DNA of 30,478 bases from a virus (IMGVR_UViG_3300037420_001183:1-30478), one strand, 5' to 3'; shown: positions 2,629 to 29,150, counted from the first letter of the stretch. Program-made: numbers and translations. The notes: generated from the letters alone by a model not told the origin.

Positions 2629-4134
2629 GTGTTCGACCTCTCGCGGCTCACGCGAGCCGACCTCCAGCGCTACAGCACCGAGATCAGCCAGTCGCTCGCC
2701 GAGGAACGACTGCGTAACTACACGCGCCTCATGTGGCACGTCATCGAGCCGAGCCGGCCGCTGGTGGGCGGCTGGGCGATGGACGCGATCGACGAGCATC
2801 TCGAGGCCGTTACCAACGGGCGGATCAAGTACCTGTTGATCAACGTCCCGCCGGGGTTCCGAAAGTCGCTGGAGACGTGCGTGTTCTGGCCGTCGTGGGA
2901 GTGGGGCCCGCGCCGGCGCGCCGACCTGCGGTATGGCTTCATCGGCTACCGGTCCGCGCTCACCGAACCGAACAACGTGAAGCTCCGGCGGCTCGTCTCG
3001 AGCGAGCTCTATCGGCAGCTCTGGCCGCACGTCGCCATCGCCGAGGACCAGAACACCAAGGTGTTCTTCGAGACGACCGAGACCGGCTCTGCGCTCGCCA
3101 CGTCGATCGGCGGCACGGTCATGGGCAAGCGCTGGGACCGCTGGGTGCTCGACGATCCGAACAACACGAAGGAAGTCGACAGCGACGCGAAGCTCACCGA
3201 AGCGCGCCTGTTCGTCACCGAGGTGCTGCCGACCCGCGTCAACGACGAGCGCACGGTGGCCGGCGTGACGATCATGCAGCGCACCGGCGAGCGCGACGTC
3301 GCCGGGCTGTTGCTCGAGAACGAGCTCGTCGACTGCCACCTATGCATCCCGATGGAGTGGCGCACGGGGCACCCGTACATCCACTACCCGGACCGCTGCA
3401 CGGCCATCGGCTGGTGCGATCCGCGTCGCGAGGAGGGCGAGCTCGCGTTCCCCGAGCGGTTCCCGCGCGAGTCCGTCGACCGGCTCAAGAAAGCCCTCAG
3501 CGCCGAGGGCGGCGACTACGCCGTCGCTGCCCAGCTCGACATGGTGCCGGTCCCGCGCGGCGGCGGCATGTTCGACGAGACGTGGTTCGACAGGTTCTGC
3601 GACGAGCACGAGGTGCCAGCCGGTGTGACCGTCCGAGGCTGGGACATCGCGGCGAGCAAGGGGCCGAAGTCGCCGTTCACGGCGAGCGCGAAGATCCGGA
3701 TCGCGTCGAACGGGACCGTGTACCTGATGGACGTCACGAACGAGCGGATCGACGCGGCCGGGTTCGAAGAGCATCTCGTCGCGGTGTCGCTTGCCGACTC
3801 GCCGGACACGATCATCGACGTGCCGCAGGATCCAGGGCCGTCAGCGAAGATCCTGGTGACCTCGCTCGCGCGACGGCTGCACGGCCGGACGTACCTGTAC
3901 TCGCCCGAGGACGGCGCGAAGGACACGCGCGCGATGCCGTTCGCGGCGCAGTGCAAGGCGAAGAACGTCGTGCTCGTGCGAGGCGCGTGGAACAAGCCGT
4001 TCATCCAGCAGGCGAAGTCGTTCCCGCGCGGCATGTTCAAGGACATCATCGACGCGTGCTCCCGCGCGTATGCGCGGGCGGTCGCGCACGCCTCGATGGC
4101 GTCGCCGGTGGGCGGCCGGCTGCGCGTGCTGTAA
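2629..4134 (+). CDS. terL: terminase large subunit
   Basis: Walker A-like INVPPGFRKS, Walker B WVLDD, coupling motif IMQR, RNase H-like VRGWDIAAS and KDIIDA. Confidence 0.95.
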   Translation: MFDLSRLTRADLQRYSTEISQSLAEERLRNYTRLMWHVIEPSRPLVGGWAMDAIDEHLEAVTNGRIKYLLINVPPGFRKSLETCVFWPSWEWGPRRRADLRYGFIGYRSALTEPNNVKLRRLVSSELYRQLWPHVAIAEDQNTKVFFETTETGSALATSIGGTVMGKRWDRWVLDDPNNTKEVDSDAKLTEARLFVTEVLPTRVNDERTVAGVTIMQRTGERDVAGLLLENELVDCHLCIPMEWRTGHPYIHYPDRCTAIGWCDPRREEGELAFPERFPRESVDRLKKALSAEGGDYAVAAQLDMVPVPRGGGMFDETWFDRFCDEHEVPAGVTVRGWDIAASKGPKSPFTASAKIRIASNGTVYLMDVTNERIDAAGFEEHLVAVSLADSPDTIIDVPQDPGPSAKILVTSLARRLHGRTYLYSPEDGAKDTRAMPFAAQCKAKNVVLVRGAWNKPFIQQAKSFPRGMFKDIIDACSRAYARAVAHASMASPVGGRLRVL

Positions 4135-4171
4135 TCGACCCATCGGCACAGCATCGGCGACACACGGTGTG
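4133..4171 (+). promoter_or_regulatory. late-promoter motif copy 1 (portal, leaderless)
   Basis: AATCGACCC 4133-4141 overlapping the terL TAA; CGACACA at 4158; GTG at +38. Confidence 0.75.
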
Positions 4172-5637
4172 TGAACGGAGACCGCACGGCCAAGGGACGG
4201 TTCGCACCGGGCAATCAGGCTGCGCGTGTCGCGAAGGCGAAGCAGGCGCCCGGCTCGACCGGCGTCATCGCCTACGGCGGGTGGGTCCAGACGGGCGATC
4301 CGTCGTCGCTGTCCGGCACGCGGAAGTGGGTCGAGTACGCGAACGCGTTCTCGCGGCCGCCTGTCGCGATCGCTCTTTTGCTCCGCTCCGCGCTGCTGTC
4401 CGGCGCGAAGTGGTCGCTGCACGAGAACGCCGCCGGCGGCAAGGGTGCGAAGCAGGGCGTCGACGTCATCCAGCAGGGGCTGCTCGACGCCGACCTGGAC
4501 GAGCCGTGGAACGAGGTCGTCGCGCGTGCTGCGATGAGCTACTTCCACGGCGCGTCGATCCACGCGTTTTCACTCGCGCGGCGCCCCGACGGTTTGGTCG
4601 CGGTGAACGAGCTCGGCCATCGGCCGATGTCGACCATTCTCCGGTGGCTGCGCGCGGCGGACAACATGCCGTTCGATTCCGTCGAGCAGCAGACGCCGGA
4701 CGGCAAGCTGTGGCCGATCCCACTGAGTGAGTGCCTGTACATCCGCGAAGGTGTCATGTCGGACAGCCCCGAGGGGGTCGGCGTTCTGCGGTTGATCGTC
4801 GAGCGCATCCGTCGCATCCACAAGTACGAGGCGCTCGAGGGCTCGGAGATGTTCTCGTCGATGGGCGGGCTGCCGATCGCACGTGCGCCGCTCGAAGAGA
4901 TCCGAAACGACGTCAAGGGACTACCGGCGGACAAGCAGGAAGCCGAGATCGATCGCCGCACCGACGCTCTCGAGACCGCGGTGAAGAACCGGATCAAGAC
5001 GCCCGAGAAGCAGCAGTACCTGCTCCTCGACTCGGCGACGTTCAAGGGCGCCGACCCGAACGAGATCACGACCGTGCCGAAGTGGGCGCTCGAGATCGTC
5101 AAGGGCGACCTCCAGGGCCTCGCCGACATCCGCAAAACCATCAACGACCTCGATCTCGACCTAGCGCGCATCCTCGGCGTCGAGTTCGCCTACGTCGGTG
5201 GCGGCTCGTCGTCGGGCACGTACGGCATGCACGAGAGCAAGGTCGGCGTGTTCCAGGCGTCGCTGCAGTCGGGTCTCAACCGGATTGCACAGCGCGCGAT
5301 GCGCCAGCTCGTGCGGCCGATCATCAAGGCGAACGGTCTCGATCCGGACACGTGCTCGCCGACGCTCGTCCCGGAGAAGATCACGATCTCGGCGGTGCTT
5401 GAGGCGACCCAGGCACTGGCGAACATGACACTCGCCGGGCTGCGGCCCGACGACCCGGCGCGCAACGTGATCCGTGAGCGCCTCGACCTGCCGCCCGAGC
5501 CGGATCCGGCGCCCGCGCTGATGCTGCCGCGCGGCCGAGTGCCGGCGGATCCGAACGCACCCAAGCCCGAGGATATCCCGCCGGCCGACCCGGAGCCGAT
5601 GCCCGACGTCACCGAGAAGCGGAGGAAGCGCCGATGA
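4171..5637 (+). CDS. portal protein (DUF935/Mu gp29-like)
   Basis: Position after TerL, 488 aa, motifs SPEGVGVLR, MGGLPIAR, SGTYGMHESK, IRERLDLP; Pro-rich tail. Confidence 0.85.
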   Translation: MNGDRTAKGRFAPGNQAARVAKAKQAPGSTGVIAYGGWVQTGDPSSLSGTRKWVEYANAFSRPPVAIALLLRSALLSGAKWSLHENAAGGKGAKQGVDVIQQGLLDADLDEPWNEVVARAAMSYFHGASIHAFSLARRPDGLVAVNELGHRPMSTILRWLRAADNMPFDSVEQQTPDGKLWPIPLSECLYIREGVMSDSPEGVGVLRLIVERIRRIHKYEALEGSEMFSSMGGLPIARAPLEEIRNDVKGLPADKQEAEIDRRTDALETAVKNRIKTPEKQQYLLLDSATFKGADPNEITTVPKWALEIVKGDLQGLADIRKTINDLDLDLARILGVEFAYVGGGSSSGTYGMHESKVGVFQASLQSGLNRIAQRAMRQLVRPIIKANGLDPDTCSPTLVPEKITISAVLEATQALANMTLAGLRPDDPARNVIRERLDLPPEPDPAPALMLPRGRVPADPNAPKPEDIPPADPEPMPDVTEKRRKRR

Positions 5638-6164
5638 GCGAGAGCATCAGCGTGACCGGCGTTTCGACGCCCGTCACTATCTACGGGACGTTCAACGCGG
5701 CGAAGGACTACGTCGCGGTCATGTACGGCGCCGCTTACGCGGCGTGGACCGCGCTGACCGACGACCAGAAGAAGCAGACGCTGATCGCTGCGCTGCGCTA
5801 CCTCGAGCAGCAGGCGTGGGACGCCGATACCGCGGCGGACTTCGCGACTCGCGACGCGATCGCTGCGTTCCCGCAGGCTGAGTACGAGCTAGCCGTGCTG
5901 ATCGCGGACGACGCGAGCATGACGCAGAACGCGGACGCGAGCTCGAACATCCGCGCGGTCGGTGCCGGATCGGCACGCGTCGAGTTCTTCAACCCGACGA
6001 GCGTGCAGAGCGGCACGGCGTCGGTGCTGCCACCGATCGTGATGCGGCTCGTCGGCCAGTACCTGGCCGCAGCGACGGTTGGCGTCGGCGCGAGCGGCCA
6101 GAGCGGCGACTGCGAGAACCCGTTCTCGCGGTGCGCGGACTTCGATCGCAAGGTGCCCTACTGA
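5634..6164 (+). CDS. head-tail adaptor (DnaT-like phage family)
   Basis: YGTFNAAKDY...KKQTLIAALRYLE...AEYELA...VGAGSARVEF pattern typical of this adaptor family. Confidence 0.7.
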   Translation: MSESISVTGVSTPVTIYGTFNAAKDYVAVMYGAAYAAWTALTDDQKKQTLIAALRYLEQQAWDADTAADFATRDAIAAFPQAEYELAVLIADDASMTQNADASSNIRAVGAGSARVEFFNPTSVQSGTASVLPPIVMRLVGQYLAAATVGVGASGQSGDCENPFSRCADFDRKVPY

Positions 6165-7505: not shown

Positions 7506-7544
7506 AATCGACCCGCTGTGCCACCGCGCGCCACCTTGGCCGCA
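7506..7544 (+). promoter_or_regulatory. late-promoter motif copy 2 (protease, leaderless)
   Basis: AATCGACCC 7506-7514; CCACCTT at 7531; ATG at +38; no SD. Confidence 0.8.
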
Positions 7545-9034
7545 TGGCACAGGCCCAGCGCTACAAGCTCAAGCTCAAGCAGTTGGACTTCGTCTCGCTC
7601 GTCGATGACCCGGCGCAGCCGAACGCGAAGTGTCTGCTGATCAAGCGCAAGGACGGCGGCAAGTCCGAGATCGAGGCGACCGCCCGGCTCGTCAAGACGA
7701 ACGACGAGCTCGGCTTGGCGTTCTTCTGGGCGTTCACCTCGACGAACGCCGACGGATCGGCGCACTACGACCTCCACGGAGATCAGGTCGTCGCCGACGA
7801 CACGATGATCAAGGCGGCGATGGCGTTCATGGAGAACGGCGGCGCGGTCGACGAGATGCACGACAGCGATCCGGACGGCGGTCGTGTCGTGTTCGCCATG
7901 CCGATGACGCCGGAGATCGCGAAGGCGTTCGGCGTCGAGACCAAGACGAGCGGCCTCATGATCGCCATCAAGCCGTCCGCCGAGGCGATGGTGAAGCTGA
8001 AGGACGGTACGTACCGCGCCGTCAGTATCGCGGGCCTGGGCGAACGAGAGACGGTCAAGGGCGCCGGCCGCGTCGTCAAGAGCACGCTCTACACCGACCT
8101 CGTCGACGGCCACCAGCACGAGGTGTGCGTCTGCGACGACGGCTCGCTGTATGTGCGCTACGCGACCAGCGAGGGCGCCGACCGCGAGCACAGCCACGGC
8201 ATCGTGTTCGAGAACGGCCAGCTCACCATCCTGGCCGACAGCGGCCACACGCACGTTCTGGCCGAGGGTCAGCCGGGCGTCGCGATCGTTCCCGCCGATG
8301 CGATCGTGGTCGTGCAGGCGAGTGCTTCTCCGACGAAGAACGTGGGTGCAGCGCGCAATACCACCGAGACTGGCGCGAGCAAATCGACCCGTCAGGCACC
8401 TGCGCGCGACAACGACAGCATGAAGATCGTCATCCTGTCCGAAGCGCAGCACGCGCACTACTCGAAGCTGGGCGCCTCCGAGCAGGAGGCGTTCGTCAAC
8501 AAGTCGGCCGCTGAGCGCGATGCCGAGGTCCAGAAGGCGCTCGACGCCGACCCGATCGTCTTCAAGGGCGAGCGGTCGGGCCTCGAGGTCCGCAAGAGCC
8601 AGGGCGACTTCGCCTTGAAGCTCGCGAAGCAGGCCGAGGAGAACGCGGCCACGGTCGCGAAGCAGGCCGAGGAGCTCGCGAAGCGCGACGCCGAGATCCG
8701 CAAGCAGGCGGTTATCGCGAAGCGCAACGAGGTCTTCCAGGGCAAGGCCCCGGGCAAGGACGAGGTCCTCGACCGCATCATCGAGAAGTTCCTCGGCGAC
8801 GACGAGGCGCTCGCCGTGTTCAAGGGCCTCGTCGCGGTCTCGAAGCTCGGCGACAAGGCCCCGGGTGCGAACGGCGGCCTCGAGCCGTCCGACAACCCGG
8901 CGCTCGACGCCTTCAACAAGGGGCTCGTCGAGTTCGCGAAGTCGAAGAACACCACCCCGGTGCTCGCGACCAGCGAGTTCATCTCCACCACCGAGGGCGC
9001 GACCCTCTACGCGGCCACCCAGGCGCAGGCCTGA
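7544..9034 (+). CDS. XkdF-like prohead protease fused to an HxH-repeat module and a C-terminal scaffold
   Basis: VSLVDDPA, DLHGDQV, IKAAMAFM..VDEMH, KDGTYRAVSIAG; coiled-coil C-terminus; upstream of capsid genes. Confidence 0.85.
   Translation: MAQAQRYKLKLKQLDFVSLVDDPAQPNAKCLLIKRKDGGKSEIEATARLVKTNDELGLAFFWAFTSTNADGSAHYDLHGDQVVADDTMIKAAMAFMENGGAVDEMHDSDPDGGRVVFAMPMTPEIAKAFGVETKTSGLMIAIKPSAEAMVKLKDGTYRAVSIAGLGERETVKGAGRVVKSTLYTDLVDGHQHEVCVCDDGSLYVRYATSEGADREHSHGIVFENGQLTILADSGHTHVLAEGQPGVAIVPADAIVVVQASASPTKNVGAARNTTETGASKSTRQAPARDNDSMKIVILSEAQHAHYSKLGASEQEAFVNKSAAERDAEVQKALDADPIVFKGERSGLEVRKSQGDFALKLAKQAEENAATVAKQAEELAKRDAEIRKQAVIAKRNEVFQGKAPGKDEVLDRIIEKFLGDDEALAVFKGLVAVSKLGDKAPGANGGLEPSDNPALDAFNKGLVEFAKSKNTTPVLATSEFISTTEGATLYAATQAQA
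8382..8420 (+). promoter_or_regulatory. late-promoter motif copy 3 (intragenic)
   Basis: AATCGACCC 8382-8390; CGACAAC at 8407; in-frame ATG at +38. Confidence 0.75.
8420..9034 (+). CDS. nested in-frame scaffold protein (204 aa, MKIVILSEAQ...)
   Basis: (8420-7544)/3=292, so in frame; follows a low-complexity linker; Ala/Glu/Lys coiled coil; has its own motif copy. Confidence 0.7.
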   Translation: MKIVILSEAQHAHYSKLGASEQEAFVNKSAAERDAEVQKALDADPIVFKGERSGLEVRKSQGDFALKLAKQAEENAATVAKQAEELAKRDAEIRKQAVIAKRNEVFQGKAPGKDEVLDRIIEKFLGDDEALAVFKGLVAVSKLGDKAPGANGGLEPSDNPALDAFNKGLVEFAKSKNTTPVLATSEFISTTEGATLYAATQAQA

Positions 9035-11319: not shown

Positions 11320-11471
11320 TGTCGATGATCCCGTTCCTCGACCACGCCGAGACGTGCAAGGTGTGCCACGCGCGGCCCGATCTCCTCTGCGCGATCGGCA
11401 AGCAGCTGTTCGAGGAGGGCAGGGTGCGGCTCATGCGGAAGCTCGATCCGGCGAAGCGGGCGAAGGCGTAA
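11319..11471 (+). CDS. 50-aa His/Cys microprotein
   Basis: TGATG coupling; MSMIPFLDHAETCKVCHARPDLLC...; its TAA forms part of the next motif copy. Confidence 0.6.
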   Translation: MSMIPFLDHAETCKVCHARPDLLCAIGKQLFEEGRVRLMRKLDPAKRAKA

Positions 11472-11508
11472 TCGACCCACCGAGGTGGTCGGGGCCAGCA
11501 TCACTTCA
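11470..11508 (+). promoter_or_regulatory. late-promoter motif copy 4 (leadered)
   Basis: AATCGACCC 11470-11478; CCAGCAT at 11495; +38 is A11508; SD AAGGAG and ATG 11537 follow. Confidence 0.75.
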
Positions 11509-11536: not shown

Positions 11537-11986
11537 ATGGGCAACTTCAAGATCGAGATCGAAGCAGTCGGCGGCCACGGCATCCAGCGCGAGGTGAAGC
11601 AGGGCGAGATCATCCCCTACGACGCCGCGCACCCGAACGAGCCGGACGTGCTCGCGAAGCGGTTCGTCGAGGAGTTCGCGAGGTCAAACAGCATGGTCAG
11701 CGCGAAGTTGATCCACTGGCCCGACACCACGCCGATCGTCGACAACCTGCTGACCGGCATCCGTGAGCACGGCGACTTCACGACCCAGTGGCAGGGCGAG
11801 GAGATGCTCAAGTATTTCGCGTTCGGACACCTGCCCGAGGGGCCGATGCGGGACATCTCGCGGCTGTACTGCCACCTCGCGTTCATGACCGTGCGCACCG
11901 TGCCGCGCTGCCCCGAGCGCACCGTGGCGCTACGCAAGCTTCTTGAGGGCAAGGACGCTGCAGTGCGCGCGGCGATGACCAGGTAG
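11537..11986 (+). CDS. two-domain protein; C-terminal helical hairpin reminiscent of Acb2/Tad1-type domains
   Basis: SD AAGGAG; C-terminal YFAFGHLP...LA...PRCPERTVALRKLLEGKDAAVRAA. The CDS is solid; the function is speculative. Confidence 0.6.
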   Translation: MGNFKIEIEAVGGHGIQREVKQGEIIPYDAAHPNEPDVLAKRFVEEFARSNSMVSAKLIHWPDTTPIVDNLLTGIREHGDFTTQWQGEEMLKYFAFGHLPEGPMRDISRLYCHLAFMTVRTVPRCPERTVALRKLLEGKDAAVRAAMTR

Positions 11987-11990
11987 CACC

Positions 11991-12425
11991 GTGACCGAGC
12001 TCGAGGCCACCAACGCGATCCTGACGCTCTGGAAGTCCGGCTGGGAGGCGCTGCATCCGGCCGACACGTCCGATCCAGACAGCGTGCCCTGGTGTACCGA
12101 CGACGAGCTCTACGCGCCGGACCAGCTCGGCGCGCTTGGCTGCTGGGCGCGGATCGTGTTTCGGCCGGCCACGGACGAGCAGCTGACGCAGGGCCCGGTC
12201 GCGATGAACGAGGCGGCTGGCGTCGTCATCGTGCAGCTGTTCGGGCCGTTGAACGAGGGCACCGCGAAGCTCACCGGCCTGGCCGACGACGTCCGCACGG
12301 TGCTCAAGCGCAAGCGATCCGGCGAGCTGCGGACGCACGACGCGCCGAGCTCGAAGCCGGCGAGCGACGGCGAGTGGGCAATGCGCGTGGTGACCGTCGA
12401 GGTCCGCTACACGTACACGGGCTAG
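11991..12425 (+). CDS. tail terminator-like protein
   Basis: WARIVF, GVVIVQLFGPLNEG..KLTGLAD, W...VTVEVRY; upstream of the tail tube gene. Confidence 0.78.
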   Translation: MTELEATNAILTLWKSGWEALHPADTSDPDSVPWCTDDELYAPDQLGALGCWARIVFRPATDEQLTQGPVAMNEAAGVVIVQLFGPLNEGTAKLTGLADDVRTVLKRKRSGELRTHDAPSSKPASDGEWAMRVVTVEVRYTYTG

Positions 12426-12458: not shown

Positions 12459-13205
12459 ATGCCTCCGAGGCTGAAGGATCGCAGCGGGCAGCGCTTTGGC
12501 GAGATGGTGGTCGTCGAACTGGCCGGCAGGCGCCCGCGCCCAGGACGGAGCCTGTCCCGCCTCTATTGGTACTGCCGATGTTCCTGCGGCGCGTTCGCAA
12601 TCATTGCCGATTCGAACCTGAAGACGGCCGGACGCAGCCACGTCCACGTCGCCGCACAGGACCTCACCGAGTGGCGCGCAGAGACAGAGCGCCTCATCGC
12701 CGACGAGAAGGCGAAGCGGGCGGACGCCGCGCTTGAGCGCGCGAGACGGACCGCTGCACGGCGCGCGGCAGCCGCGGTCACGCTCGGAACGAGAAACTCC
12801 TGGTACGACATGATCCAGCGCTGCACGAATCCGAAGGTCGAGTACTACCCGGATTACGGCGGTCGCGGGATCCGCGTGTGCGAGCGCTGGCTCTCATTCG
12901 ATGCGTTCCTTGCCGACATGGGGATCCGACCGGACGGCCTGACGCTCGATCGCATCGACACAAACGGTGATTACGAGCCTGGAAACTGTCGCTGGGCCAC
13001 GCGCAAGGAGCAGTCGCGTAATACGCGGGCTACGCGGCTCACCGAGAGCGAAGCTGCGGTGATCGGCGCACGCCTACGCGCTGGCCATCGCGTTGTGGAC
13101 ATCGCACGCGACTATGCAATCAACAAGGGAACGATTGCGTCCGTCAAGGCGGGCCGCTCCTGGCGCGACGTCAGCGGCATCGCCGCCCGAAATCGACCCG
13201 CCTGA
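12459..13205 (+). CDS. free-standing HNH homing endonuclease with C-terminal HTH
   Basis: DRSGQRFG, WYCRCSCG, WYDMIQRC, YGGRGIRVCERW, TLDRIDTNGDYEPGNCRWAT. Confidence 0.92.
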   Translation: MPPRLKDRSGQRFGEMVVVELAGRRPRPGRSLSRLYWYCRCSCGAFAIIADSNLKTAGRSHVHVAAQDLTEWRAETERLIADEKAKRADAALERARRTAARRAAAAVTLGTRNSWYDMIQRCTNPKVEYYPDYGGRGIRVCERWLSFDAFLADMGIRPDGLTLDRIDTNGDYEPGNCRWATRKEQSRNTRATRLTESEAAVIGARLRAGHRVVDIARDYAINKGTIASVKAGRSWRDVSGIAARNRPA

Positions 13206-13229
13206 CGCCGGTATACGAGCCTGTCCTCC
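13191..13229 (+). promoter_or_regulatory. late-promoter motif copy 5 (tail tube, leadered)
   Basis: AATCGACCC 13191-13199; CGAGCCT at 13216; SD GAGGAGG 13236-13242; GTG 13248. Confidence 0.75.
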
Positions 13230-13247: not shown

Positions 13248-14777
13248 GTGTCCGACGTACTCAGTGAAGGCGTATCCGTCCGCATCGCCCCCCAGACGAC
13301 GCTCGGCACCGCGCCGACCTCCGAGTGGACCCAGCTGCAGCCCGACAAGGGCAGCATCCAAGGGTTCAAGCGCGAGAACCAGACGGTCGAGCGGAACATC
13401 CACGACCCCAACATGGGGCAGCGCAAGGGTGACGTCGTCGGCTGGGCGGTGAAGCCGCAGTTCGCCCACGACTTCAACAAGGACTTCGCCGACATCCTCG
13501 CGGAGCCGATCATGCGCTGCACCGGCGCGCACCCGGGCGGCAAGAGCAAGCGCAAGTACCGGCCGACGGCTGTCGTCGACGGCGGCGGCTCGGACGACTC
13601 GTTCACGGTCGCGGCCAGCGGCGACCTGCCCGCGAAGACGCTGATCAAGACGCGAGGCTTCACGAACAGCGCGAACAACGGCCTGTTCAAGACGACCGCC
13701 GGATCCGGCGCGACCGCGATCCACGTCGCGACCGGCACGCTCGTTGCCGAGGCCTCGCCGCCCGAGAACGCGACGCTCGGCGTTTGGGGCTTCGAGGGCG
13801 CCAGCGACGATCTGACGATCGACGCGAACGGCTACCTCAACTCGACGACCGAGGACTTCACGACACGTGGCATTCCGGTCGGCGCGCTGCTCCAGATCGG
13901 CGACCCCGATACGGCGAACTGCGCGTTCGGCACGCTCGGTGTCTTCTACGCCTGGGTCGTGTCGGTCGCAGCGCACCAGGTCGTGCTCGAGGGCCACAGC
14001 TTCGCCGATGGCGTCTCGCTCGGAGCCGACGCTGGCGCCGGCAAGACGATCCGCGTGCGCGTTCCGTCGCTGTACCGGAACTATGCGATCACCAACGCGA
14101 GCTACCAGAAGAAGCGCGTCTGGCTCGAGCTCGAGCTGCCCAACGCCGGCAGCGACGGCACGACTCGCTGGATCGAGGCCGACTTCTGCGCAGTCGACAA
14201 GATCGACATCTCGGCGCCGCTCAAGCAGAAGGTGACGGCCACGGTCTCGTTCGTCGGTGGCAACGCCACCAAGCCGCTCGCGGCAGCCGATCGCGAGGCG
14301 GCCGGCGGTGTCAGCCGCGGCGACCGGCAGTCGACGGCGTTCGCGCCGCTCGTGGCGGACCTGTCCGACACGGCCAACGATCTTCGATTCGTGCGCCTTC
14401 TCGACGCGGGCTCGAATCTCGTCGCGAAGATCAACAACTGGACGCTGACGCTCCAGAACAACGTGACGCCGCTCGAGGTGCAGGGCACGCCGGGCGCGAT
14501 CGACCACATCTATGGCGCGTTCATGCCGAGCGTGAAGGTCGAGGCGTACTTCGACAACTCGGCGCAGATCGACGCGGCCACCGACAACGACGACCTGTCG
14601 TTCGACGCCTGCGTGGACAACGGCGAGTTCATGTTCGCGTTCCGGCTGCCGCGCACCGCGATGCGCAACGACCAGCTGCAGATCCAGGCGAACACGCAGG
14701 TCAAGCTGAACTTCGACTCGCCGGGCTTCCTGCACGAGACGACGAACGTCGCGAACGTGCTCTGCATCTTCGAGTAG
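13248..14777 (+). CDS. major tail tube protein (long form with a probable inserted domain)
   Basis: QTTLGTAP N-terminus; LTLQNNV, VEAYFDN, FAFRLPR C-terminus; lies between terminator and chaperone genes. Confidence 0.85.
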   Translation: MSDVLSEGVSVRIAPQTTLGTAPTSEWTQLQPDKGSIQGFKRENQTVERNIHDPNMGQRKGDVVGWAVKPQFAHDFNKDFADILAEPIMRCTGAHPGGKSKRKYRPTAVVDGGGSDDSFTVAASGDLPAKTLIKTRGFTNSANNGLFKTTAGSGATAIHVATGTLVAEASPPENATLGVWGFEGASDDLTIDANGYLNSTTEDFTTRGIPVGALLQIGDPDTANCAFGTLGVFYAWVVSVAAHQVVLEGHSFADGVSLGADAGAGKTIRVRVPSLYRNYAITNASYQKKRVWLELELPNAGSDGTTRWIEADFCAVDKIDISAPLKQKVTATVSFVGGNATKPLAAADREAAGGVSRGDRQSTAFAPLVADLSDTANDLRFVRLLDAGSNLVAKINNWTLTLQNNVTPLEVQGTPGAIDHIYGAFMPSVKVEAYFDNSAQIDAATDNDDLSFDACVDNGEFMFAFRLPRTAMRNDQLQIQANTQVKLNFDSPGFLHETTNVANVLCIFE

Positions 14778-14876: not shown

Positions 14877-14914
14877 AATCGACCCGTCCGCCGGTCGGCG
14901 GCGACGCTGAAGCA
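14877..14914 (+). promoter_or_regulatory. late-promoter motif copy 6 (tail chaperone, leaderless)
   Basis: AATCGACCC 14877-14885; CGACGCT at 14902; ATG at +37. Confidence 0.8.
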
Positions 14915-15354
14915 TGCCGATTCAGTTGACCGACGACCTGTTCGAACATCTGACGCCTCCCGACACGGTGGACTGGACGCTCACCGGCGTTCGGTACCCC
15001 AAGGACAACCCCGAGCCGATCGTGCTCGAGCTCAAGTGGGCCGGCCAGGAGTCGCCGTTCTTCAAGGAGATGAGGAAGCTGGCGCTCAAGCCGCTGCCGG
15101 ACGCGATGGACAACGCCGAGCGGGCGCTGCGCCAGTTCGCGAAGCTTGCGATCGGCGGCTGGCGTAACGTGCTCGACGGAGGGACGCCGGCACCGTTCGA
15201 CGCGAAGATCTGCGGCGAGTTCCTCGCCCGCACGCTGCGCAAGCGCGGTCCGCAGGGCATCGTCGAGGCCGAGGCAATGATGGGCTACGCGGCGTCGCCG
15301 GGCGTGTTCCGCCGGGCCGCACCGCCGACGGCGGATGACCTGGGAAAAGAGTAG
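14914..15354 (+). CDS. tail assembly chaperone (gpG-equivalent)
   Basis: Between tube and tape measure; IGGWRNV..G...PF motif; ends LGKE on a slippery site. Confidence 0.82.
   Translation: MPIQLTDDLFEHLTPPDTVDWTLTGVRYPKDNPEPIVLELKWAGQESPFFKEMRKLALKPLPDAMDNAERALRQFAKLAIGGWRNVLDGGTPAPFDAKICGEFLARTLRKRGPQGIVEAEAMMGYAASPGVFRRAAPPTADDLGKE
15342..15348 (+). promoter_or_regulatory. -1 programmed frameshift heptamer G GGA AAA
   Basis: XXXYYYZ in the correct phase (CTG GGA AAA GAG TAG); the -1 frame is open to 15734. Confidence 0.85.
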
Positions 15355-15734
15355 CGGCGTGGCTCGCCTGGTCCGAGACGCACGCCGGTGTCTTTCGTCA
15401 GGCCCGGATCGAGAGCGACGGCGACAAGCCGTTGCGCAAGGAGCTGCAGGCGCAGGTCGATCGCGCTCGCGCCGAGGAGCCAGAGCGTGACGCCGCGATG
15501 TCGCTCGTCATCGAGTGCTGGCAGATGCTCGCCAGCGACCGGCCGCGCGAGCTCGTGCCGGTCAATCTCGGCTTCGCGTCGATCCGCGGAGAGATCCCGT
15601 TCTCGTCGATCGATGCCTGGGCGAAGCGCTTGGATCTCAGCGACGAGGAGCTGCTGCTCGTCGCGCAGGTCGTCCGCCAGCTCGATTCCGACAGAACCGA
15701 ACGCGTTCTCAGCCAACTAGCCACGCAGGGGTGA
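15342..15734 (+). CDS. frameshifted chaperone extension (gpT-equivalent)
   Basis: -1 frame reads RVAAWLAWSETHAG...CWQMLASDR...IPFSSIDAWA...VRQLD; same frame as ORF 15432..15734. Confidence 0.8.
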   Translation, partial: GKRVAAWLAWSETHAGVFRQARIESDGDKPLRKELQAQVDRARAEEPERDAAMSLVIECWQMLASDRPRELVPVNLGFASIRGEIPFSSIDAWAKRLDLSDEELLLVAQVVRQLDSDRTERVLSQLATQG

Positions 15735-18151: not shown

Positions 18152-18190
18152 AATCGACCCGTCCCCGGCCTCGCCACGACCCTACGGTCA
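18152..18190 (+). promoter_or_regulatory. late-promoter motif copy 7 (leaderless)
   Basis: AATCGACCC 18152-18160; CGACCCT at 18177; ATG at +38. Confidence 0.8.
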
Positions 18191-18528
18191 TGGCCGGAAC
18201 CATCGCCACGCTCATCACGCAGGTCGCGGCCTGCTCCACGCTCCGCGACGGAGGGGTCGCGCAGACCGGATCGCTCGAGGTGCTGCTCGAGGGCATCGCT
18301 CAGGCATGCGACACACCGGCACCGGCAGTCGCGGCGGCGATCCGTGCGAACGCGAAGGACCTCGCGGACGCCGTCACGCGGGGCACGTCCCATGTCGCTG
18401 TCGACCTCACCGATCCGGCGATCCAGCACGTGCAGCGGTTCCTCGCGATGACGCGGGCGAAGCGCGCGGCGCAGATCACAGCTGTCCAGGCCGCGCTCGA
18501 CCAGCTCGTCGCGCAGGGCAACGGATAG
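18190..18528 (+). CDS. hypothetical helical protein, first gene of the tail accessory cluster
   Basis: 112 aa ORF with good codon bias; start fixed by the motif. Confidence 0.7.
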   Translation: MAGTIATLITQVAACSTLRDGGVAQTGSLEVLLEGIAQACDTPAPAVAAAIRANAKDLADAVTRGTSHVAVDLTDPAIQHVQRFLAMTRAKRAAQITAVQAALDQLVAQGNG

Positions 18529-18531
18529 CCG

Positions 18532-19212
18532 ATGACGCTGCCCGCGTTCAAGGCGATCGGCTCCGGCTCGACGGGAAATCCGTCGTGGCCGGCTGGTCAC
18601 GCCGCGGGCGACTTCGCACTCCTTTGCATCGAGCACCAGCTCACGGGCTCCGTCGTCACGACCCCGAGCGGCTGGAGCCTCGTTCGCCGGAACGAGTACC
18701 CGAACGGCACGACCATCCTCAGCGTGTTCTCGCGGTTCGCGACGTCGGGCTCGGAGACCGCGCCGACGATCAGCGGTCCGACGAATCACACGTGGAGCGT
18801 CATCTCGACGTACAGCGGCGTGAACACCGACACGCCGATCCACGGCGCCTGTCCATCCTGGGCCGCAAACAACAGCGCCGGCCTGCCCGGGATCACGACG
18901 TACGTCGACGACTGCCTGATCGCGCAGATCGTCGCGTGGTCCGCGGCGTCCGTCGGTCCGCTCACCAGCGGCGAATCGAACAGCACGCTCGGCAGCCTGA
19001 CCAAGCGGTTCGACGCCGGCACGCTGGCCGGTAACGGCGGCGGCCTCGTCATCTACGACGGCACGCTCGCGACGCACGGCACGTTCGACATCACGAGCTT
19101 CACCTGCGGGACGGCCACCAACTTCGCGTGCCTGACGCTCGCGCTACAGGCGGCTGACAAGAACCTGCCGATCCTGCAGCGCAAGAGTCGCGTAATCAAC
19201 GGAGGCATGTAG
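18532..19212 (+). CDS. putative virion beta-sandwich/adhesin-like protein, paralog 1
   Basis: Thr/Ser/Gly-rich; WPAGHAAGD, TTPSGW, YSGVNT..PI. Confidence 0.7.
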   Translation: MTLPAFKAIGSGSTGNPSWPAGHAAGDFALLCIEHQLTGSVVTTPSGWSLVRRNEYPNGTTILSVFSRFATSGSETAPTISGPTNHTWSVISTYSGVNTDTPIHGACPSWAANNSAGLPGITTYVDDCLIAQIVAWSAASVGPLTSGESNSTLGSLTKRFDAGTLAGNGGGLVIYDGTLATHGTFDITSFTCGTATNFACLTLALQAADKNLPILQRKSRVINGGM

Positions 19213-19445
19213 CCCGTGAGCCTTCCCGTCTTCAAGGCGATGGGCGCCGGCAGTGAGACGGCACCGGCGTGGCCTGCCGGGCACGCGGCCGGTGACTTCG
19301 GCCTGCTCTGCGTCGAGGTCGCGAATGCTGGCACGGACATCGCGACGCCAAGCGGCTGGACGAAGCTCGCCGGCTGCCCGATTCTGCGCGGTGCGAACGC
19401 CCACCTGACGCTGTTCTATCGGTTCGCGACGTCGGGCTCGGAGAC
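18733..19445 (+). repeat. 26-bp exact direct repeat shared by the two paralogs (18733-18758 and 19420-19445)
   Basis: CGGTTCGCGACGTCGGGCTCGGAGAC in both, encoding RFATSGSET. Confidence 0.85.
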
Positions 19446-19890
19446 GGCGCCATCGATCGCCGGTTCGTCGGACCACGCCTGGGGCGTCATCTACACGGCG
19501 ACCGGCGTCAACCAGACGAACCCGATCCACTCGATCACGACGTTGTGGTCGACGGGCAACCGCGTCGACTCGGCCGGCATGACGACGTACCTCGAGGATT
19601 GTCTGATTCTGTCGATCTTCGGGTACCACATCGACAACGCCGGCCCGGTTAGCAGCGGCGAGACGAACGCCTCGCTCTCGTCGCTGACGGAGCGCTACGA
19701 CGCGGGCACGACGACGAACACCGGGGGCGGCATCGTGATCATCGAAGGCGGGCTCGCAACGCCAGGAACGATCGATCCGACGAACGTCACCTTCACGCCG
19801 AGCGGCAACGCGACGAGCGCGGTGGTCGCGCTGCAGGCGGCCGGCCGTTCGTTCGGAATGAAGTCTCGAATCGTCAACACGAGGATGTGA
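19216..19890 (+). CDS. putative virion beta-sandwich/adhesin-like protein, paralog 2
   Basis: Colinear with paralog 1 along its whole length; SD GGAGG. Confidence 0.7.
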   Translation: MSLPVFKAMGAGSETAPAWPAGHAAGDFGLLCVEVANAGTDIATPSGWTKLAGCPILRGANAHLTLFYRFATSGSETAPSIAGSSDHAWGVIYTATGVNQTNPIHSITTLWSTGNRVDSAGMTTYLEDCLILSIFGYHIDNAGPVSSGETNASLSSLTERYDAGTTTNTGGGIVIIEGGLATPGTIDPTNVTFTPSGNATSAVVALQAAGRSFGMKSRIVNTRM

Positions 19891-19893
19891 GCC

Positions 19894-22245
19894 ATGCCTG
19901 GAATTCCAGTCAAGCAATCCACCGCGATCGATGTCGGCGTTTGGGCCGCTGACTCGGCCGACGGCAAGACCGGCAAGACCGGGCTGACGCTCGCCGTAAC
20001 GCTCAAGAAACAGGGCGCACACACGTTGTCGTCGATCTCGCCGACCGTCACCGAGGTCGGCAATGGTCACTACGACATCTCGCTCACGAGCTCGCACACC
20101 GACACGCTCAAGGCGGCGACGCTGCGCGCGACCGCGACGGGCGCGGACCCGATCGACGCGCCGAACCTGATCAACGTCGTCGCCTACGACCCCTACGACA
20201 GCGTGCGCATGGGCGTCACGGCGCTGCCGAACGCGGCGGCCGGTGCGAACACCGGTCTCCCCGTCGTCGGCTCGCAGATCCCGAACGCGAACGCCGGAGC
20301 AATCGGCGGCCTCGCGACCGACGCAATCGCGAGCGGCACCGCGCAGGGCGCCGGAACCGGCAACAACCAGATCCAGCTCGCCGCCGGAGCCTCGGCGACC
20401 GATGCGTTCTACAGCCGCCAGAAGATCACGATCACGGGTGGCACCGGTGCTGGCCAGACGCGATTCATCATCGCGTACACGGGCTCGACGAAGATGGCGA
20501 CCGTCAACCGCAACTGGGCGACGAACCCGGACGCCACCTCGGTGTACGAGATCTCCGGCGAGTCCTTCAGCGTGCTGACCGAGGGTCTCGCGCAGGCAGG
20601 CGCCGCGACGTCGATCACGCTGCAGTCGACCGCGTCGGCAGTCGACGACTTCTACAAGGGGCTCTGGCTCGAGCTCGTCAGCGGGGTCGGCGCTGGGCAG
20701 TGTCGCCTTTGCACGGCGTACAACGGTACGACGAAGGTTGCGACGGTCGCGCGGGCCTGGGCGACGAACCCCGACTCCACGACCGGCTACCAGGCGCACC
20801 TCGGCGCGGGCGTCGATGTGGCGAGCTGGGCGGCGTCGGCGGTCGCGGCGCCGAACGTCGCAGGCTACCCACTCATCGACGTGAAGAAGTGGCTCGGCAC
20901 CGACGCGGCCGCGCCGACGGTCGCCGGGATCCCGAAGGTCGAAGACGCGACGCTGCAGGCGCGCCTGACTACGGCACGCGCGGGCTACCTCGACAACCTG
21001 AACGTGGGCGGCAACGTCGCCTCGAGCACCGAGGTCACCAGCATCCAGAACAACACGCGATGCGTGCGCGTCGTCCCCGAGACGATCGACATCCCGGACA
21101 CCTCGACACGTACGTACCGCATCGAGCTCATGCTCTACGACGAGGTCGGCAATATGGAGGCGCCCGATGCGGCGCCGACCGTCGCGCTCGTCAACCAGGC
21201 GGGTACGGACCGGAGCTCGCGGCTCGACTCGACGACGATGGCGCTGGTCTCGACGGGCCGCTACCGCTGTATCTACACCTCGACGGCGGGCGACACGCAG
21301 GAGCAGCTCGTCTGGGCGTTCTCGGTCGTCGAGGGCGGCGCGACGCGCATCTTCGGCAACACGTCGAACGTCGGCGCGACCGCATCGGGCGGTTCCGGCA
21401 GCGGCACCGGCGACACGACTGGCACGGCGATCTGGGACAAGAACGAGACGCTCGCGCGGAAGCGCCGCGTCGATCTGCTCGTCCGCGCCGACTCGGGTGA
21501 CCTCGCCGATCGCGGGACCGACTTCATGGCGCTCGCGATCGTCTACCTGTCGCTGTCGAACAGCACGGACCTGACGACCGCGCTCGGGACGATGACGAAC
21601 AAGCGCATCCCGATCAACGCGCCCACGGGTACGTTCACGGCCGACTCGACGACGGACCAGCTCGCGAAGACCGCGCACGGCCTCGAGACGGGCGACGGGC
21701 CGCTGTTCGTCAACGTCAGCGGCGGAACGCTGGCGGCTCCACTCGCCGCCGCGACGCCGTACTACGGGATCAAGATCGACGACGACCACGTGAAGCTGGC
21801 GACGTCGCTCGCGAACGCCTACGCCGGTACGGCCATCAACCTGACGACGAATGGCACCGGGACGCAGAGCTTCGTTGCGAACCTGTCGTTCCAGTGCTCA
21901 CGCGGCGTCGACGGCCTGTTCACCTACGAGGCGACGCAGGCCGAGACGAACCGCGACGACAACGAGATCCTGCTCCTGGTCGACGGCACGGGCTACTCCC
22001 TCGCCAACAACGCGGGCGGGCGGGCGTCGATCGTGATGAACCCGAACGACGGGTGGGAGAGCACGCTCGGTGACGGGCTGACCCGCAACGAGGGGTTGCT
22101 CCTCGTCACGCGCGATGCGGTGGCGCCGATCAACAAGAGCGGCAGCGACTACATCGTCCGCGACGTCAACGACACCAAAGACAGCCACCACGGCACGATC
22201 ACGGCAGCCGGGCGCAGCGGGACCGGCGTGGATGACCCGACGTAA
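19894..22245 (+). CDS. large multidomain virion protein (fibre/adhesin-like)
   Basis: 783 aa, Thr/Ala/Gly-rich, two ~70-aa internal repeats, HGLETGD...YYGIKID...KLATS module. Confidence 0.7.
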   Translation: MPGIPVKQSTAIDVGVWAADSADGKTGKTGLTLAVTLKKQGAHTLSSISPTVTEVGNGHYDISLTSSHTDTLKAATLRATATGADPIDAPNLINVVAYDPYDSVRMGVTALPNAAAGANTGLPVVGSQIPNANAGAIGGLATDAIASGTAQGAGTGNNQIQLAAGASATDAFYSRQKITITGGTGAGQTRFIIAYTGSTKMATVNRNWATNPDATSVYEISGESFSVLTEGLAQAGAATSITLQSTASAVDDFYKGLWLELVSGVGAGQCRLCTAYNGTTKVATVARAWATNPDSTTGYQAHLGAGVDVASWAASAVAAPNVAGYPLIDVKKWLGTDAAAPTVAGIPKVEDATLQARLTTARAGYLDNLNVGGNVASSTEVTSIQNNTRCVRVVPETIDIPDTSTRTYRIELMLYDEVGNMEAPDAAPTVALVNQAGTDRSSRLDSTTMALVSTGRYRCIYTSTAGDTQEQLVWAFSVVEGGATRIFGNTSNVGATASGGSGSGTGDTTGTAIWDKNETLARKRRVDLLVRADSGDLADRGTDFMALAIVYLSLSNSTDLTTALGTMTNKRIPINAPTGTFTADSTTDQLAKTAHGLETGDGPLFVNVSGGTLAAPLAAATPYYGIKIDDDHVKLATSLANAYAGTAINLTTNGTGTQSFVANLSFQCSRGVDGLFTYEATQAETNRDDNEILLLVDGTGYSLANNAGGRASIVMNPNDGWESTLGDGLTRNEGLLLVTRDAVAPINKSGSDYIVRDVNDTKDSHHGTITAAGRSGTGVDDPT

Positions 22246-26716: not shown

Positions 26717-26756
26717 AATCGACCCGTCGCGCCGGTCGAGGCGAGCCTGTTCGAGA
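26717..26756 (+). promoter_or_regulatory. late-promoter motif copy 8 (leaderless)
   Basis: AATCGACCC 26717-26725; CGAGCCT at 26742; ATG at +39. Confidence 0.78.
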
Positions 26757-27193
26757 TGGCGCCCCGGGACCGCGATGTACTCGTCCGCAAGGATACGCCC
26801 GTGGGAGGCCTCGCCGTCCCGCACCACGTCGCCGAGCCCGGTACGGGCGTCGTCGAAGGCGAGGCGCTCCGGCAGGTTCGCGAGAGCCGCCCGCCGAGCG
26901 AGCGCATGGCTCACCTCGAGCTGCGCGTCGATGGCGTCGTCGCGGACCTCGGCGAGATCAAGGGAGACATCGGCGAGCTCCGGGGCGACGTCCACGGCAT
27001 CAAGGGCATGCTCGAGCGCGACCTCGAGGAGCGACGGGCCGAGCGTCAGGCGCGCCTTCAGACCGAGACGAACCAGGTCGGGCTCGAGAAGGTCCGGCTC
27101 AACAGCCGCGCGAAGATCATCCTCGGCATCCTCGGCGTCATCAGCGCGGCGATTGGCGGCGCAATCACCCTGCTCGCGAAGGCGCTGTCGTGA
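26756..27193 (+). CDS. coiled-coil protein with C-terminal TM helix (holin/antiholin-like)
   Basis: Heptads LELRVDGVVADLGEIKGDIGELRGDV; TM IILGILGVISAAIGGAITLLA. Confidence 0.65.
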   Translation: MAPRDRDVLVRKDTPVGGLAVPHHVAEPGTGVVEGEALRQVRESRPPSERMAHLELRVDGVVADLGEIKGDIGELRGDVHGIKGMLERDLEERRAERQARLQTETNQVGLEKVRLNSRAKIILGILGVISAAIGGAITLLAKALS

Positions 27194-27690: not shown

Positions 27691-28193
27691 TCATGAAGAG
27701 GCTACTGGTTTGCGCGTTCTTGGCCCTCGGTGTCTGCACTGTCACCACGCCGCTCGTCGCCGCTGATCCGCTGGGGAGCGCGACGCTCACGACCGATACC
27801 GGCTCCGCTGCGCCGGTCGCGACGCCCACACCTGCGAGCACGGGCTCGGCGGTCGCGCAGACCCCGGCGGACAAGTTGCCGAACCCCGGCGACGATCCGG
27901 CGAAGGCGCTCGATGCCGAGAAGGCCGCGTACAAGCTCGGCTGGCCGCTCGCCGTGCTCGCCGCGCTGGTCATGCTCGCCAAGCTGGCCGGGACCGCCGC
28001 GACCATCTCGTGGCTTGCCTGGCTCGGCAAGGGCAAGGCCGCGGCGATCGCTGCTGGCGTCGGCGCGGTCTCCGCGGCCGCCTTCAACGCACTCGCGCTC
28101 GGCGGCACGTGGTACGCGGCGCTGATCGCGGCCGGCGGCGTCGTGCTCCTGCTGATCAAGCCGCACGCCGAGCCGAAGCCGGCGGCCACCTGA
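27687..28193 (+). CDS. membrane protein with signal peptide and about 3 TM segments (holin candidate)
   Basis: SD GAGGAGG; N-terminal signal, Pro/Thr linker, hydrophobic C-terminal half. Confidence 0.65.
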   Translation: MIMKRLLVCAFLALGVCTVTTPLVAADPLGSATLTTDTGSAAPVATPTPASTGSAVAQTPADKLPNPGDDPAKALDAEKAAYKLGWPLAVLAALVMLAKLAGTAATISWLAWLGKGKAAAIAAGVGAVSAAAFNALALGGTWYAALIAAGGVVLLLIKPHAEPKPAAT

Positions 28194-28194
28194 C

Positions 28195-28437
28195 GTGGGC
28201 CTCCGCCTCCAGCGCCATCTCGGCGCCCTGGGCTCGATCGACCCCGGCCAGTACGCCGTCGACAAGCCGTGCATCTTCGTGAGCTGTCCGGCGTGTGGCT
28301 GCGTCGATGACATCTCGGTTACTCACGAGGTGAACATCGGAGGCGTGGTCGCGCCGCGCTGGAAGTGCCCGACGGTGACGTGCTCGTTTCACGAGTTCCT
28401 GTCGCTCGACTGCTGGAACGAGGAGCCTCGGAGTTGA
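28195..28437 (+). CDS. small Zn-finger protein
   Basis: CPACG...WKCPTVTC. Confidence 0.65.
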   Translation: MGLRLQRHLGALGSIDPGQYAVDKPCIFVSCPACGCVDDISVTHEVNIGGVVAPRWKCPTVTCSFHEFLSLDCWNEEPRS

Positions 28438-28442
28438 GTCCG

Positions 28443-28580
28443 ATGGCGAAGGACGCCGCGTCCAAGCTCGCGCAGCGCATCTACGAAGACCCGACGCGCG
28501 CGAGCGTGGAGGACGCCCGGAAGCTCGCCAGAGCGGTCCTGCTGCTCACCACCGGGCGGTTACCCGAGGTGCGGCGGTGA
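28443..28580 (+). CDS. 45-aa hypothetical protein
   Basis: MAKDAASKLAQRIYEDP...; GGAG upstream; alternative TTG start at 28434. Confidence 0.55.
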   Translation: MAKDAASKLAQRIYEDPTRASVEDARKLARAVLLLTTGRLPEVRR

Positions 28581-28690
28581 GGAGCATCGGCGCCGTTATC
28601 GTCGCCCTGGGCGTGCTGGCGTGGCTGTGGTGGCCGCGGAAGCCAGTTGCCGTCGGGCGTCGCCCTCGGACGGGGCCGCCGCGCTGGTAG
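28577..28690 (+). CDS. 37-aa single-TM microprotein (absent from the ORF track)
   Basis: SD GAGGT, GTGA overlap; MRSIGAVIVALGVLAWLWWPRKPVAVGRRPRTGPPRW; stops just before motif copy 9. Confidence 0.55.
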   Translation: MRSIGAVIVALGVLAWLWWPRKPVAVGRRPRTGPPRW

Positions 28691-28692
28691 CA

Positions 28693-28731
28693 AATCGACC
28701 CAGCTCGGCCTCGAGCGCGACCGTCGAGGCA
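28693..28731 (+). promoter_or_regulatory. late-promoter motif copy 9 (lysis cassette, leaderless)
   Basis: AATCGACCC 28693-28701; CGACCGT at 28718; ATG at +38. Confidence 0.8.
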
Positions 28732-29150
28732 TGGAGATCGCCGCGATCATCGTCCTCGCCATCGCTCTGGCCGGTGCGATCGGCGGGCTGATCTACATGG
28801 GCCGCGAGCTGGTCTCTGGACTGCGCTCGGAGCGCGCGTCGTTCGCCGCCGAGGTTCTGGCGGGCAAGGCACAGATCGCCGCTGAGAAGAACCAGGTTGC
28901 TGCCGAGAACCAGCGCGACGAAGCGCTGGCCGGGAAGGCGAAGGCCGAAGCCGAGCGCGACGCCACGAAGGCGCTGCTCGTCGCTACGCAACAGAAGCTA
29001 GCCGACGAGCTCGGCAAGAAAGGAAGCGATGCGGCTGCTCAAGTTGCTGCTGATCCTGATGCTCTGGACCGGATGCTGTCCGAAAGCGCCCGCGTGCCCG
29101 GTGGCGGTGATGCCCCCGAGGCCGCCGGCGCAGATCACGGTCACCCCTGA
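28731..29150 (+). CDS. i-spanin (Rz-like)
   Basis: N-terminal TM MEIAAIIVLAIALAGAIGGLIYM, then an Ala/Glu/Lys coiled coil; overlapped by a lipoprotein gene. Confidence 0.72.
   Translation: MEIAAIIVLAIALAGAIGGLIYMGRELVSGLRSERASFAAEVLAGKAQIAAEKNQVAAENQRDEALAGKAKAEAERDATKALLVATQQKLADELGKKGSDAAAQVAADPDALDRMLSESARVPGGGDAPEAAGADHGHP

Follow-up and report, generated by a model that had tools for sequence, protein, structure and literature searches.

A repeated bipartite signal before the late genes of an uncultured phage group, with a zinc-finger protein as its candidate activator

The viral record IMGVR_UViG_3300037420_001183:1-30478 was analysed over its whole length (hereafter the window), a linear viral fragment of 30.5 kb (ca. 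41% complete, 68% GC) that family searches identified as the late region of a long-tailed phage. Its plus strand carries nine copies of the nine-nucleotide element AATCGACCC, each accompanied by a -10-like box at a fixed distance. The geometry of this bipartite late signal argues very strongly for a promoter used by a host sigma70-type RNA polymerase, and strongly for leaderless translation starts at most copies. The signal is likely to need a phage factor, and the zinc-finger protein encoded at positions 1398-2081 is probably that factor.

The first-pass annotation, made from the sequence alone, had listed exact copies of AATCGACCC at 4133, 7506, 8382, 11470, 13191, 14877, 18152, 26717 and 28693, all on the plus strand, with zero copies on the minus strand, and a recount returned precisely this set. 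Shuffled sequences gave a mean of 0.22 copies and a maximum of 3 (0 of 100 shuffles reached nine), and allowing one mismatch added only four scattered matches in the window. The described flanks of the 9-mer (A/T before and A/G after in 9/9 copies) and the fixed offsets (C at +25 and A at +27 in 9/9, T at +31 in 7/9) were recovered as well, as were the starts of the long open reading frames (ORFs), located at +38 in five copies (a GTG at 4171, then 7544, 8420, 18190 and 28731), at +37 in one (14914) and at +39 in one (26756). The other two copies are followed at +67 (11537) and +57 (13248) by starts with strong Shine-Dalgarno (SD) sequences, whose duplexes reach -9.3 and -11.6 kcal/mol, respectively. 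In the 30 nt upstream of the 9-mer, the window sites display no conserved columns except for a weak C/G bias.

The first copy marks the terL/portal junction, and none precedes the terminase genes, namely the terS-like gene (2085-2627) and the large subunit gene terL (2629-4134), both on the plus strand. All sites have the same orientation. Site 1 (4133-4164; 9-mer at 4133-4141, -10-like GACACA at 4159-4164) precedes the predicted leaderless GTG of the portal gene at 4171. Site 2 (7506-7537; CACCTT) precedes a leaderless-type ATG at 7544, which opens an XkdF-type protease/scaffold ORF (7544-9034, plus strand), and site 3 (8382-8413; GACAAC) is found inside that ORF, before a leaderless-type, in-frame ATG at 8420 that begins the scaffold part; the cement (9047) and major capsid (9449) genes follow. 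From site 4 (11470-11501; CAGCAT) the RNA is predicted to start at about 11508, giving an SD-containing leader before the ATG at 11537 (phrog_1761), with the tail terminator gene at 11991. Site 5 (13191-13222; GAGCCT) overlaps the last codons of a plus-strand HNH endonuclease gene (12459-13205) and provides a leader with a strong SD before the GTG of the tail tube gene at 13248. Site 6 (14877-14908; GACGCT) is followed by the ATG at 14914 of a tail chaperone-like gene (weak match), with the tape measure gene at 15739, and site 7 (18152-18183; GACCCT) by a leaderless-type ATG at 18190, whose gene has no family match and is the first of a block leading to the tail assembly and hub genes. Site 8 (26717-26748; GAGCCT) precedes an ATG at 26756 (no family match, hydrophobic C-terminus), and site 9 (28693-28724; GACCGT) a leaderless-type ATG at 28731 with a weak match to Rz-like spanins (E 0.0045). 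In the module list of the first-pass annotation, the portal, protease, scaffold and tube placements stood, and the labels tail tip, membrane genes and lysis concern genes with weak or no family matches. The copy assigned to scaffold/capsid does precede the start at 8420, which turned out to be internal to the protease ORF, and the copy at 11470 serves a gene of unknown function (phrog_1761) and then the tail terminator, a module absent from that list.

Searches with the capsid protein revealed relatives at 43-72% identity, including a 59-kb contig (C93 of G001, here K93) from a metagenome-assembled genome (MAG) of Kofleriaceae, G002 (76 kb, 97% complete) and G003 (62 kb, 100% complete). These relatives carry AATCGACCC, AATCGCCCC, TTTCGCCCC or TTTCGACCC, and the consensus of the clade is WWTCGMCCC, 16 or 17 nt, then (G>T>C)ANNNT, usually with a C just before the second box. 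Eleven sequences were compared, four found by the motif, six by the capsid alone, plus the window. Without selection on the second box, 63 of their 73 exact 9-mers have A...T at offset 26 (29 copies) or 27 (34 copies), and any other offset from 15 to 39 accounts for 0-2 of the 73; the late-gene strand holds 70/73. In the six capsid-found sequences alone, 32/39 9-mers have A...T at offset 26 or 27. Sites occur before the portal, protease and scaffold genes in 10 contigs each and before the tube gene in 11, when only those sites are counted that are followed by an ORF with a match to a protein of the window, which 29 other sites lack. The regular series begins at the terL/portal junction, and the relatives show only isolated weak matches upstream. 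The geometry, module-by-module placement and leaderless starts proposed for the window hold across related phages.

An exact-pattern scan of viral contigs returned 32 loci, with repeated copies only in L007/L008 (one contig) and single copies in the rest. Among the matches listed, variant scans yielded at least 8 of 243 loci with three or more copies per strand, seven from this group plus L338 (GC 0.49), and more carriers may exist beyond the matches listed. Cultured capsid relatives reach at most 38% identity.

The hexamer TCGACC/TCGCCC is separated from the ANNNT box by 17 or 18 nt, which is the spacing of sigma70 promoters. The sequence geometry as a whole is that of this class, with A-11, T-7, a spacer of 16-18 nt and a start 6-8 nt after the -10 box. 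With a spacer of 17, the start codon lies 10, 11 or 12 nt after the A in 3, 15 and 6 sites, respectively, and with a spacer of 18 in 4, 25 and 2 sites; the distance of the start codon is fixed to the A and not to the 9-mer. An SD-less start codon 10-12 nt after the A was observed at 55 of 71 sites selected on A...T, vs 25 of 527 random A...T sites (4.7%). SD duplexes average -2.2 kcal/mol at these 55 starts vs -5.8 kcal/mol (p 4e-8) at a control set of 22 window genes without motif, whose starts were picked by eye. A pyrimidine precedes the start at 48/55 leaderless-type sites vs 13/22 control genes. Sites without an adjacent start have a pyrimidine-A step at A+11 or A+12 in 14/21 cases (background 0.067 per position), and an SD is present in the short leader.

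The same site can serve either start mode. The tube gene is leaderless in 10/11 contigs and leadered with an SD in the window, and the scaffold gene is leadered in 9/10 contigs and leaderless in the window; orthologous genes change start mode while the site stays. The window tube gene, unlike its 10 relatives, has gained both a leader and a strong SD. As a further observation on site arrangement, L191 exhibits back-to-back divergent sites (2468 on the minus strand, 2488 on the plus strand), the reverse one preceding a leaderless 128-aa ORF between the tail terminator and tube genes.

Scans for consensus promoters and terminators gave nothing above chance. Separate promoters at each module "instead of an antiterminated operon", as first proposed, are plausible, and transcription reading through from promoters further upstream may supplement the internal starts, since no terminators above chance were found. 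This lack of terminators between modules, together with the strand specificity of all sites and the SD-less genes downstream, would also suit a signal acting at the RNA level, in which the 9-mer, as part of a long late mRNA, is bound by the zinc-finger protein so that translation can begin without an SD, or in which the 9-mer is a processing or antitermination mark. Mu Com offers a likeness for such starts, and the first finger of the protein is of the CCCH type (weak zf-TRM13_CCCH and WRC matches). We nevertheless give this explanation little weight, because the spacers are restricted to 17 and 18 nt and, with A-11, T-7 and a pyrimidine-purine start step, reproduce sigma70 geometry, because sites are kept before genes with strong SDs, and because the RNA surrounding the seven starts in the window shows no common fold (the mean is -21.1 kcal/mol, against -19.8 kcal/mol at other starts). 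The position of the sites at module borders, and the differing capsid and terminase types among carriers, might suggest that the repeats are non-regulatory signals for module exchange by recombination or for packaging. This is very improbable: 9 bp are short for homologous exchange, one copy lies inside the protease ORF, and neither the second box at a fixed distance nor the phasing of the start codons would be explained.

The first-pass annotation had named a motif common in host DNA as an observation that would speak against a phage-specific promoter. Such abundance was not observed in candidate-host genomes. Five of the seven pattern matches in the 8-Mb MAG fall on the phage contig C93, which appears to be a free, circular phage molecule that was binned with the MAG, a primase-like gene being split across its ends. 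Across 61 genomes of the candidate host order, no enrichment was detected, with 149 matches at the true spacing (2 of them on C93) vs 159 at a shifted spacing; the unpublished genome G071 contributes 1 and 2 of these matches, respectively, and the conclusion is unaffected by it. The shifted spacer served as the control, a reversed pattern being unsuitable because word frequencies change.

A host factor alone, either an alternative sigma or a myxobacterial protein combining zinc-binding and sigma-region-4 parts, could still read the sites, the phage zinc-finger gene being simply co-inherited. Even among divergent phages the 9-mer core hardly changes, and TCGACC/TCGCCC shares T, G and C with TTGACA, its variable positions being those that are also variable in sigma70 promoters. 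The candidate host G001 has many sigma factors (52 Sigma70_r2 matches), and one such sigma-region-4 protein has a copy in phage G003. This phage copy (L170:8285-8779, minus strand) is 55-60% identical to genes of two myxobacterial MAGs (G001 and G005), and it was the one real match in searches for sigma region 4, which otherwise returned weak, unrelated helix-turn-helix (HTH) proteins. Such an explanation is unlikely in view of the lack of spacing-specific enrichment in the 61 genomes, the concentration of MAG matches on a phage contig, and the presence of the sigma-4-like gene in only 1/6 long genomes; a host-only promoter also offers no obvious late timing.

The first-pass annotation had left the choice between a dedicated phage sigma factor and an activator. 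The former found no support: Sigma70_r2 had 0 matches in the window and five other phage records and none listed on C93, in a search whose control was positive in 10/14 genomes and in which G000, G004 and G006 are incomplete. Mor-family proteins were found in 0/5 phage records (control positive in 1/14) and in none of 144 members of the candidate family, and a search for a single-subunit phage RNA polymerase gave 0/5 records, its control being likewise empty; the consensus is bipartite, unlike the contiguous -17 to +6 consensus of such polymerases. The activator option is favoured, and the window holds a specific candidate for it.

The candidate late-promoter activator gene (1398-2081, plus strand) encodes 227 aa directly upstream of terS. 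Its product comprises, in order, a C-x4-C-x10-C-x2-H finger, a long helix, a C4 finger, an Arg/Gly beta-hairpin and a C-terminal helical hairpin. All-against-all comparison identified this family as the only non-virion, non-packaging one in 6/6 long genomes, no other non-virion family occurring in more than 4/6 at E 1e-3, and a profile built from three relatives alone recovers the window protein at E 3e-15. Homologues end 0.4-2.6 kb before terL. Two phages found by the motif only, G006 and G009, both carry the gene (E 8.6e-34 and 4.7e-49), and their capsids are 23% and 26% identical to that of the window; the motif-found fragments G007 and G008 (12% and 9% complete) stop short of the activator region. 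Conversely, a search with the protein only returned six loci, two already known, and 4/4 new contigs have an exact 9-mer before the portal gene, one of these portal sites lacking T-7. The gene and the signal are also scarce together outside the group: 0/24 records with capsid relatives at 28-45% identity carry the gene (6 of these records are at least 90% complete), and 26 loci with such relatives have 1 full site in 455 kb.

The family is sizeable, with 758 representatives at E<=1e-3 and 288 at 1e-10 (clusters at 50% identity). Its members are basic proteins whose median net charge is +16; their Cys and His residues hardly vary, and they have a G-R-x-R-x-x-G-x-x-R-G hairpin. RG[RQK][PQ] occurs in 68/144 members and exact RGRP in 10/144. 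No Pfam, PHROG or PDB assignment was obtained for the 144 members beyond weak zinc-finger matches, such as those to zf-TRM13_CCCH and WRC, and six members had no NCBIfam assignment. A confident structure model (predicted local distance difference test score 87) comprises a finger, a 24-residue helix, a finger, a helix, a beta-hairpin and a helical hairpin. Foldseek gave no match at E<=1e-3, in fold searches that barely probed the zinc fingers and hairpin; the best VIA match (Z 8.7, root mean square deviation 2.5, 66 aligned residues) is a generic helical hairpin covering residues 139-208 only, and ESM Atlas scores were all below 0.9. A search of viral contigs with the single candidate protein found no match, the family member P0073 had no cultured-phage match among 50,697 records, and the family profile matched C93 plus one weak partial sequence in 401 genomes of the candidate host phylum. 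In G002, a short second ORF with similar zinc fingers (L168:16135-16458; E 1e-6) was observed 0.8 kb downstream of the activator gene.

The promoter might also be correctly identified and its activator be a different small or fast-evolving phage gene that escaped sequence comparison. The window covers only ca. 41% of the genome, the ORF filter (at least 45 aa plus codon bias) may drop small genes, and unrelated HTH genes occur in single genomes. We regard this as improbable, given that no other non-virion family exceeds 4/6 genomes at E 1e-3, that neither Sigma70_r2 nor Mor was matched, and that the place of the zinc-finger gene before the terminase genes is that of lpa in P1 and of rinA.

Several observations weigh against the zinc-finger protein as activator, or against the promoter reading itself. 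Two window sites lack T-7. The 71-site set, besides its selection on A...T, had three sites added by hand and one duplicate dropped; the site counts include orthologous sites and are not independent; and the leadered control was built on the best-SD start, so that its value of -6.2 kcal/mol is inflated. A myxobacterial host is only suggested, by the binning of C93 into the MAG and by the sigma-region-4 gene of G003. Of the 24 gene-free records with more distant capsids, 18 are incomplete or of unstated completeness, and these negative controls come mostly from other hosts and GC contents; the co-occurrence lies within one related phage group and may reflect shared descent. Across 10 genomes the activator has only 19-49% identity, in contrast to an almost fixed 9-mer core, a fixity that a conserved host protein could explain. 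In 10 pairs, neither the A/C variation at position 6 of the motif nor that between AA and TT at its start clearly followed protein similarity. Finally, no HTH or other known DNA-binding fold was recognized in the protein, and CCCH-type fingers often bind RNA.

On balance, it seems fairly probable that the sites are activator-dependent late promoters of the host sigmaA, with the 1398-2081 protein as the factor. The activator would be made together with the terminase genes, earlier and from a different promoter. Its binding site would be the 9-mer, located at about -38 to -30 where it overlaps the -35 position, and the bound protein would make up for the non-consensus TCGACC/TCGCCC hexamer. It may sit next to region 4 of sigma, its Arg/Gly hairpin contacting the adjacent upstream A/T bases by analogy with the AT-hook of WhiB7. 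Host sigmaA, which in the candidate host has canonical regions 2 and 4, would then melt a weak -10 box in which A-11 and T-7 are kept and the T at -12 is mostly replaced by G. Position -12 is a G in 51/75 sites, and sigmaA would therefore read this box poorly. RNA would start about 11 nt after the A, on the ATG or GTG in most copies and with a short SD leader in the rest. Late transcripts probably overlap, because no terminators above chance were found; the sites would then provide additional, graded starts instead of separating the modules from one another. More tentatively, and at present a possibility we would not bet on, the protein may found an undescribed class of activators that docks on the polymerase flap or on region 4 of sigmaA and rewrites -35 recognition to WWTCGMCCC, so that phages of soil myxobacteria would express their late genes mostly from leaderless mRNAs. 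If true, this class would use two zinc fingers and an Arg/Gly hairpin in place of an HTH, and would provide a one-gene orthogonal expression switch.

By its family matches, the window holds terminase, portal, adaptors, a Mu F-like protein, XkdF-type protease, cement, capsid and neck genes followed by tail terminator, HNH, tube, tape measure, tail assembly and hub genes. Protease and scaffold form one frame in the window and separate ORFs in several relatives (G003, G007, L033). The gene at 11537-11986, with a C-terminal phrog_1761/5120 domain, is inserted between the neck and tail terminator genes with its own site, and has no homologue among the relatives compared. An HNH gene related to 12459-13205 occurs in K93 at a different location. 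After the tail chaperone gene, a second ORF (15354-15734) is kept in 5/6 genomes at the usual place of a frameshift product. The four-gene block at 18190-22245, after the tape measure gene, has no family matches and is mostly missing from the relatives; two of its genes, 18532 and 19216, are paralogous. A 115-aa ORF at 574-921 contains a C-x2-C motif and a possible C-terminal HTH, with no Pfam, PHROG or NCBIfam match and no homologue in the relatives.

Other observations concern the wider group. In L223 and L319 (G006 and G009), the capsids are 23-26% identical to that of the window and the terminases more distant, in otherwise syntenic genomes, which suggests module exchange under a shared promoter system. 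K93 encodes a serine recombinase plus an HTH protein, and a weak integrase match was found in G003, so that some members are probably temperate. Distant capsid relatives (L041, L046 and L047) contain a different strand-specific repeat, CGTGGAACA, in 6-7 copies on the plus strand, possibly another late-promoter motif. In unrelated loci, the over-represented 9-mers ATGATACTA, ACGGCCGTT, GGCATCCAA and CCCACACCC were noted (L066, L076, L097 and L148).

Literature searches returned no description of the motif, protein or phage group, the listed papers containing the nine letters (15 of 81) all being unrelated by title, and a term search of the main text of a 2026 myxophage preprint met none of promoter, leaderless, Kofleri, Haliangi or zinc. 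A late strategy based on multiple activator-dependent promoters, often leaderless, is already known from P1, Mu, P2 and Lalka27a, which limits the surprise; the novel core is the putative, undescribed activator family. The present analysis names two candidate partners in the control of late genes for a large group of uncultured phages, a promoter of 32 bp and a protein of 227 aa, and suggests a probable function for a family without Pfam, PHROGs, NCBIfam or PDB match. If the protein changes -35 recognition, bacterial RNA polymerase would be redirected in a new manner, and a compact inducible switch would be available for use in myxobacteria. Leaderless starts on this scale would suggest that a Gram-negative host translates leaderless mRNAs extensively, and orthologues switching between leaderless and leadered starts offer a natural test of how virion protein amounts are tuned by leaders.

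Among known systems, P1 is described as having 11 late promoters and an activator, Lpa, with a 9-bp site, encoded directly before pacA/pacB (PMC10695390, PMC3152322). As in P1, many separate late promoters are present here, and the activator gene adjoins the terminase genes, in this case before terS/terL. In contrast, the Lpa site is given as an inverted repeat centred at -22 that needs the host SspA, and here a non-palindromic 9-mer lies at about -38 to -30, with leaderless starts and no conserved spacer bases; no family named Lpa appeared among the library matches of the candidate, a check that involved no direct comparison with Lpa. The Thermus phage Lalka27a is reported to have sixteen putative phage-specific late promoters, mostly leaderless, with no apparent antitermination and a presumed phage factor (bioRxiv 10.64898/2026.04.20.719267). 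The phage-specific consensus at many late, mostly leaderless promoters is shared, but that of Lalka27a, in the account consulted, is TAGGGT at -10 plus a C at -25, with no box at the -35 position, and its host belongs to a different phylum. In Mu (C/Mor) and P2 (Ogr), several late promoters are switched on by one phage protein with the host RNA polymerase (PMC3152322). Ogr likewise binds zinc, yet its sites are described as inverted repeats at about -55, and C as binding from -30 to -55; unlike these proteins, the present family has no Mor or Ogr match in 144 members, and its proteins have 200-230 aa and two fingers. RinA of staphylococcal phages is a late activator tied to the terS region and made earlier than the late genes (PMC3152322), reported to act on a single promoter that lies before terS and serves the entire late operon, whereas here no site precedes terS and up to about ten internal sites are found. 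The T4 MotA box stands in for the -35 element before a host -10 box (PMC7403470), and is likewise a phage-specific box at the -35 position; it is described for middle genes and as needing AsiA and MotA, whereas late genes are concerned here and no such Pfam or PHROG match was found in the 144 members. WhiB7 of mycobacteria, a cysteine-containing activator, is reported to bind sigmaA region 4 and to read A/T bases just upstream of -35 with its AT-hook (PMC3905903). The likeness is one of analogy only, WhiB7 being a host WhiB-family protein with no homology shown and the exact RGRP being confined to 10/144 members here. The present system works like these, yet differs from each, as far as tested, in the position or symmetry of the site or in the family of the protein.

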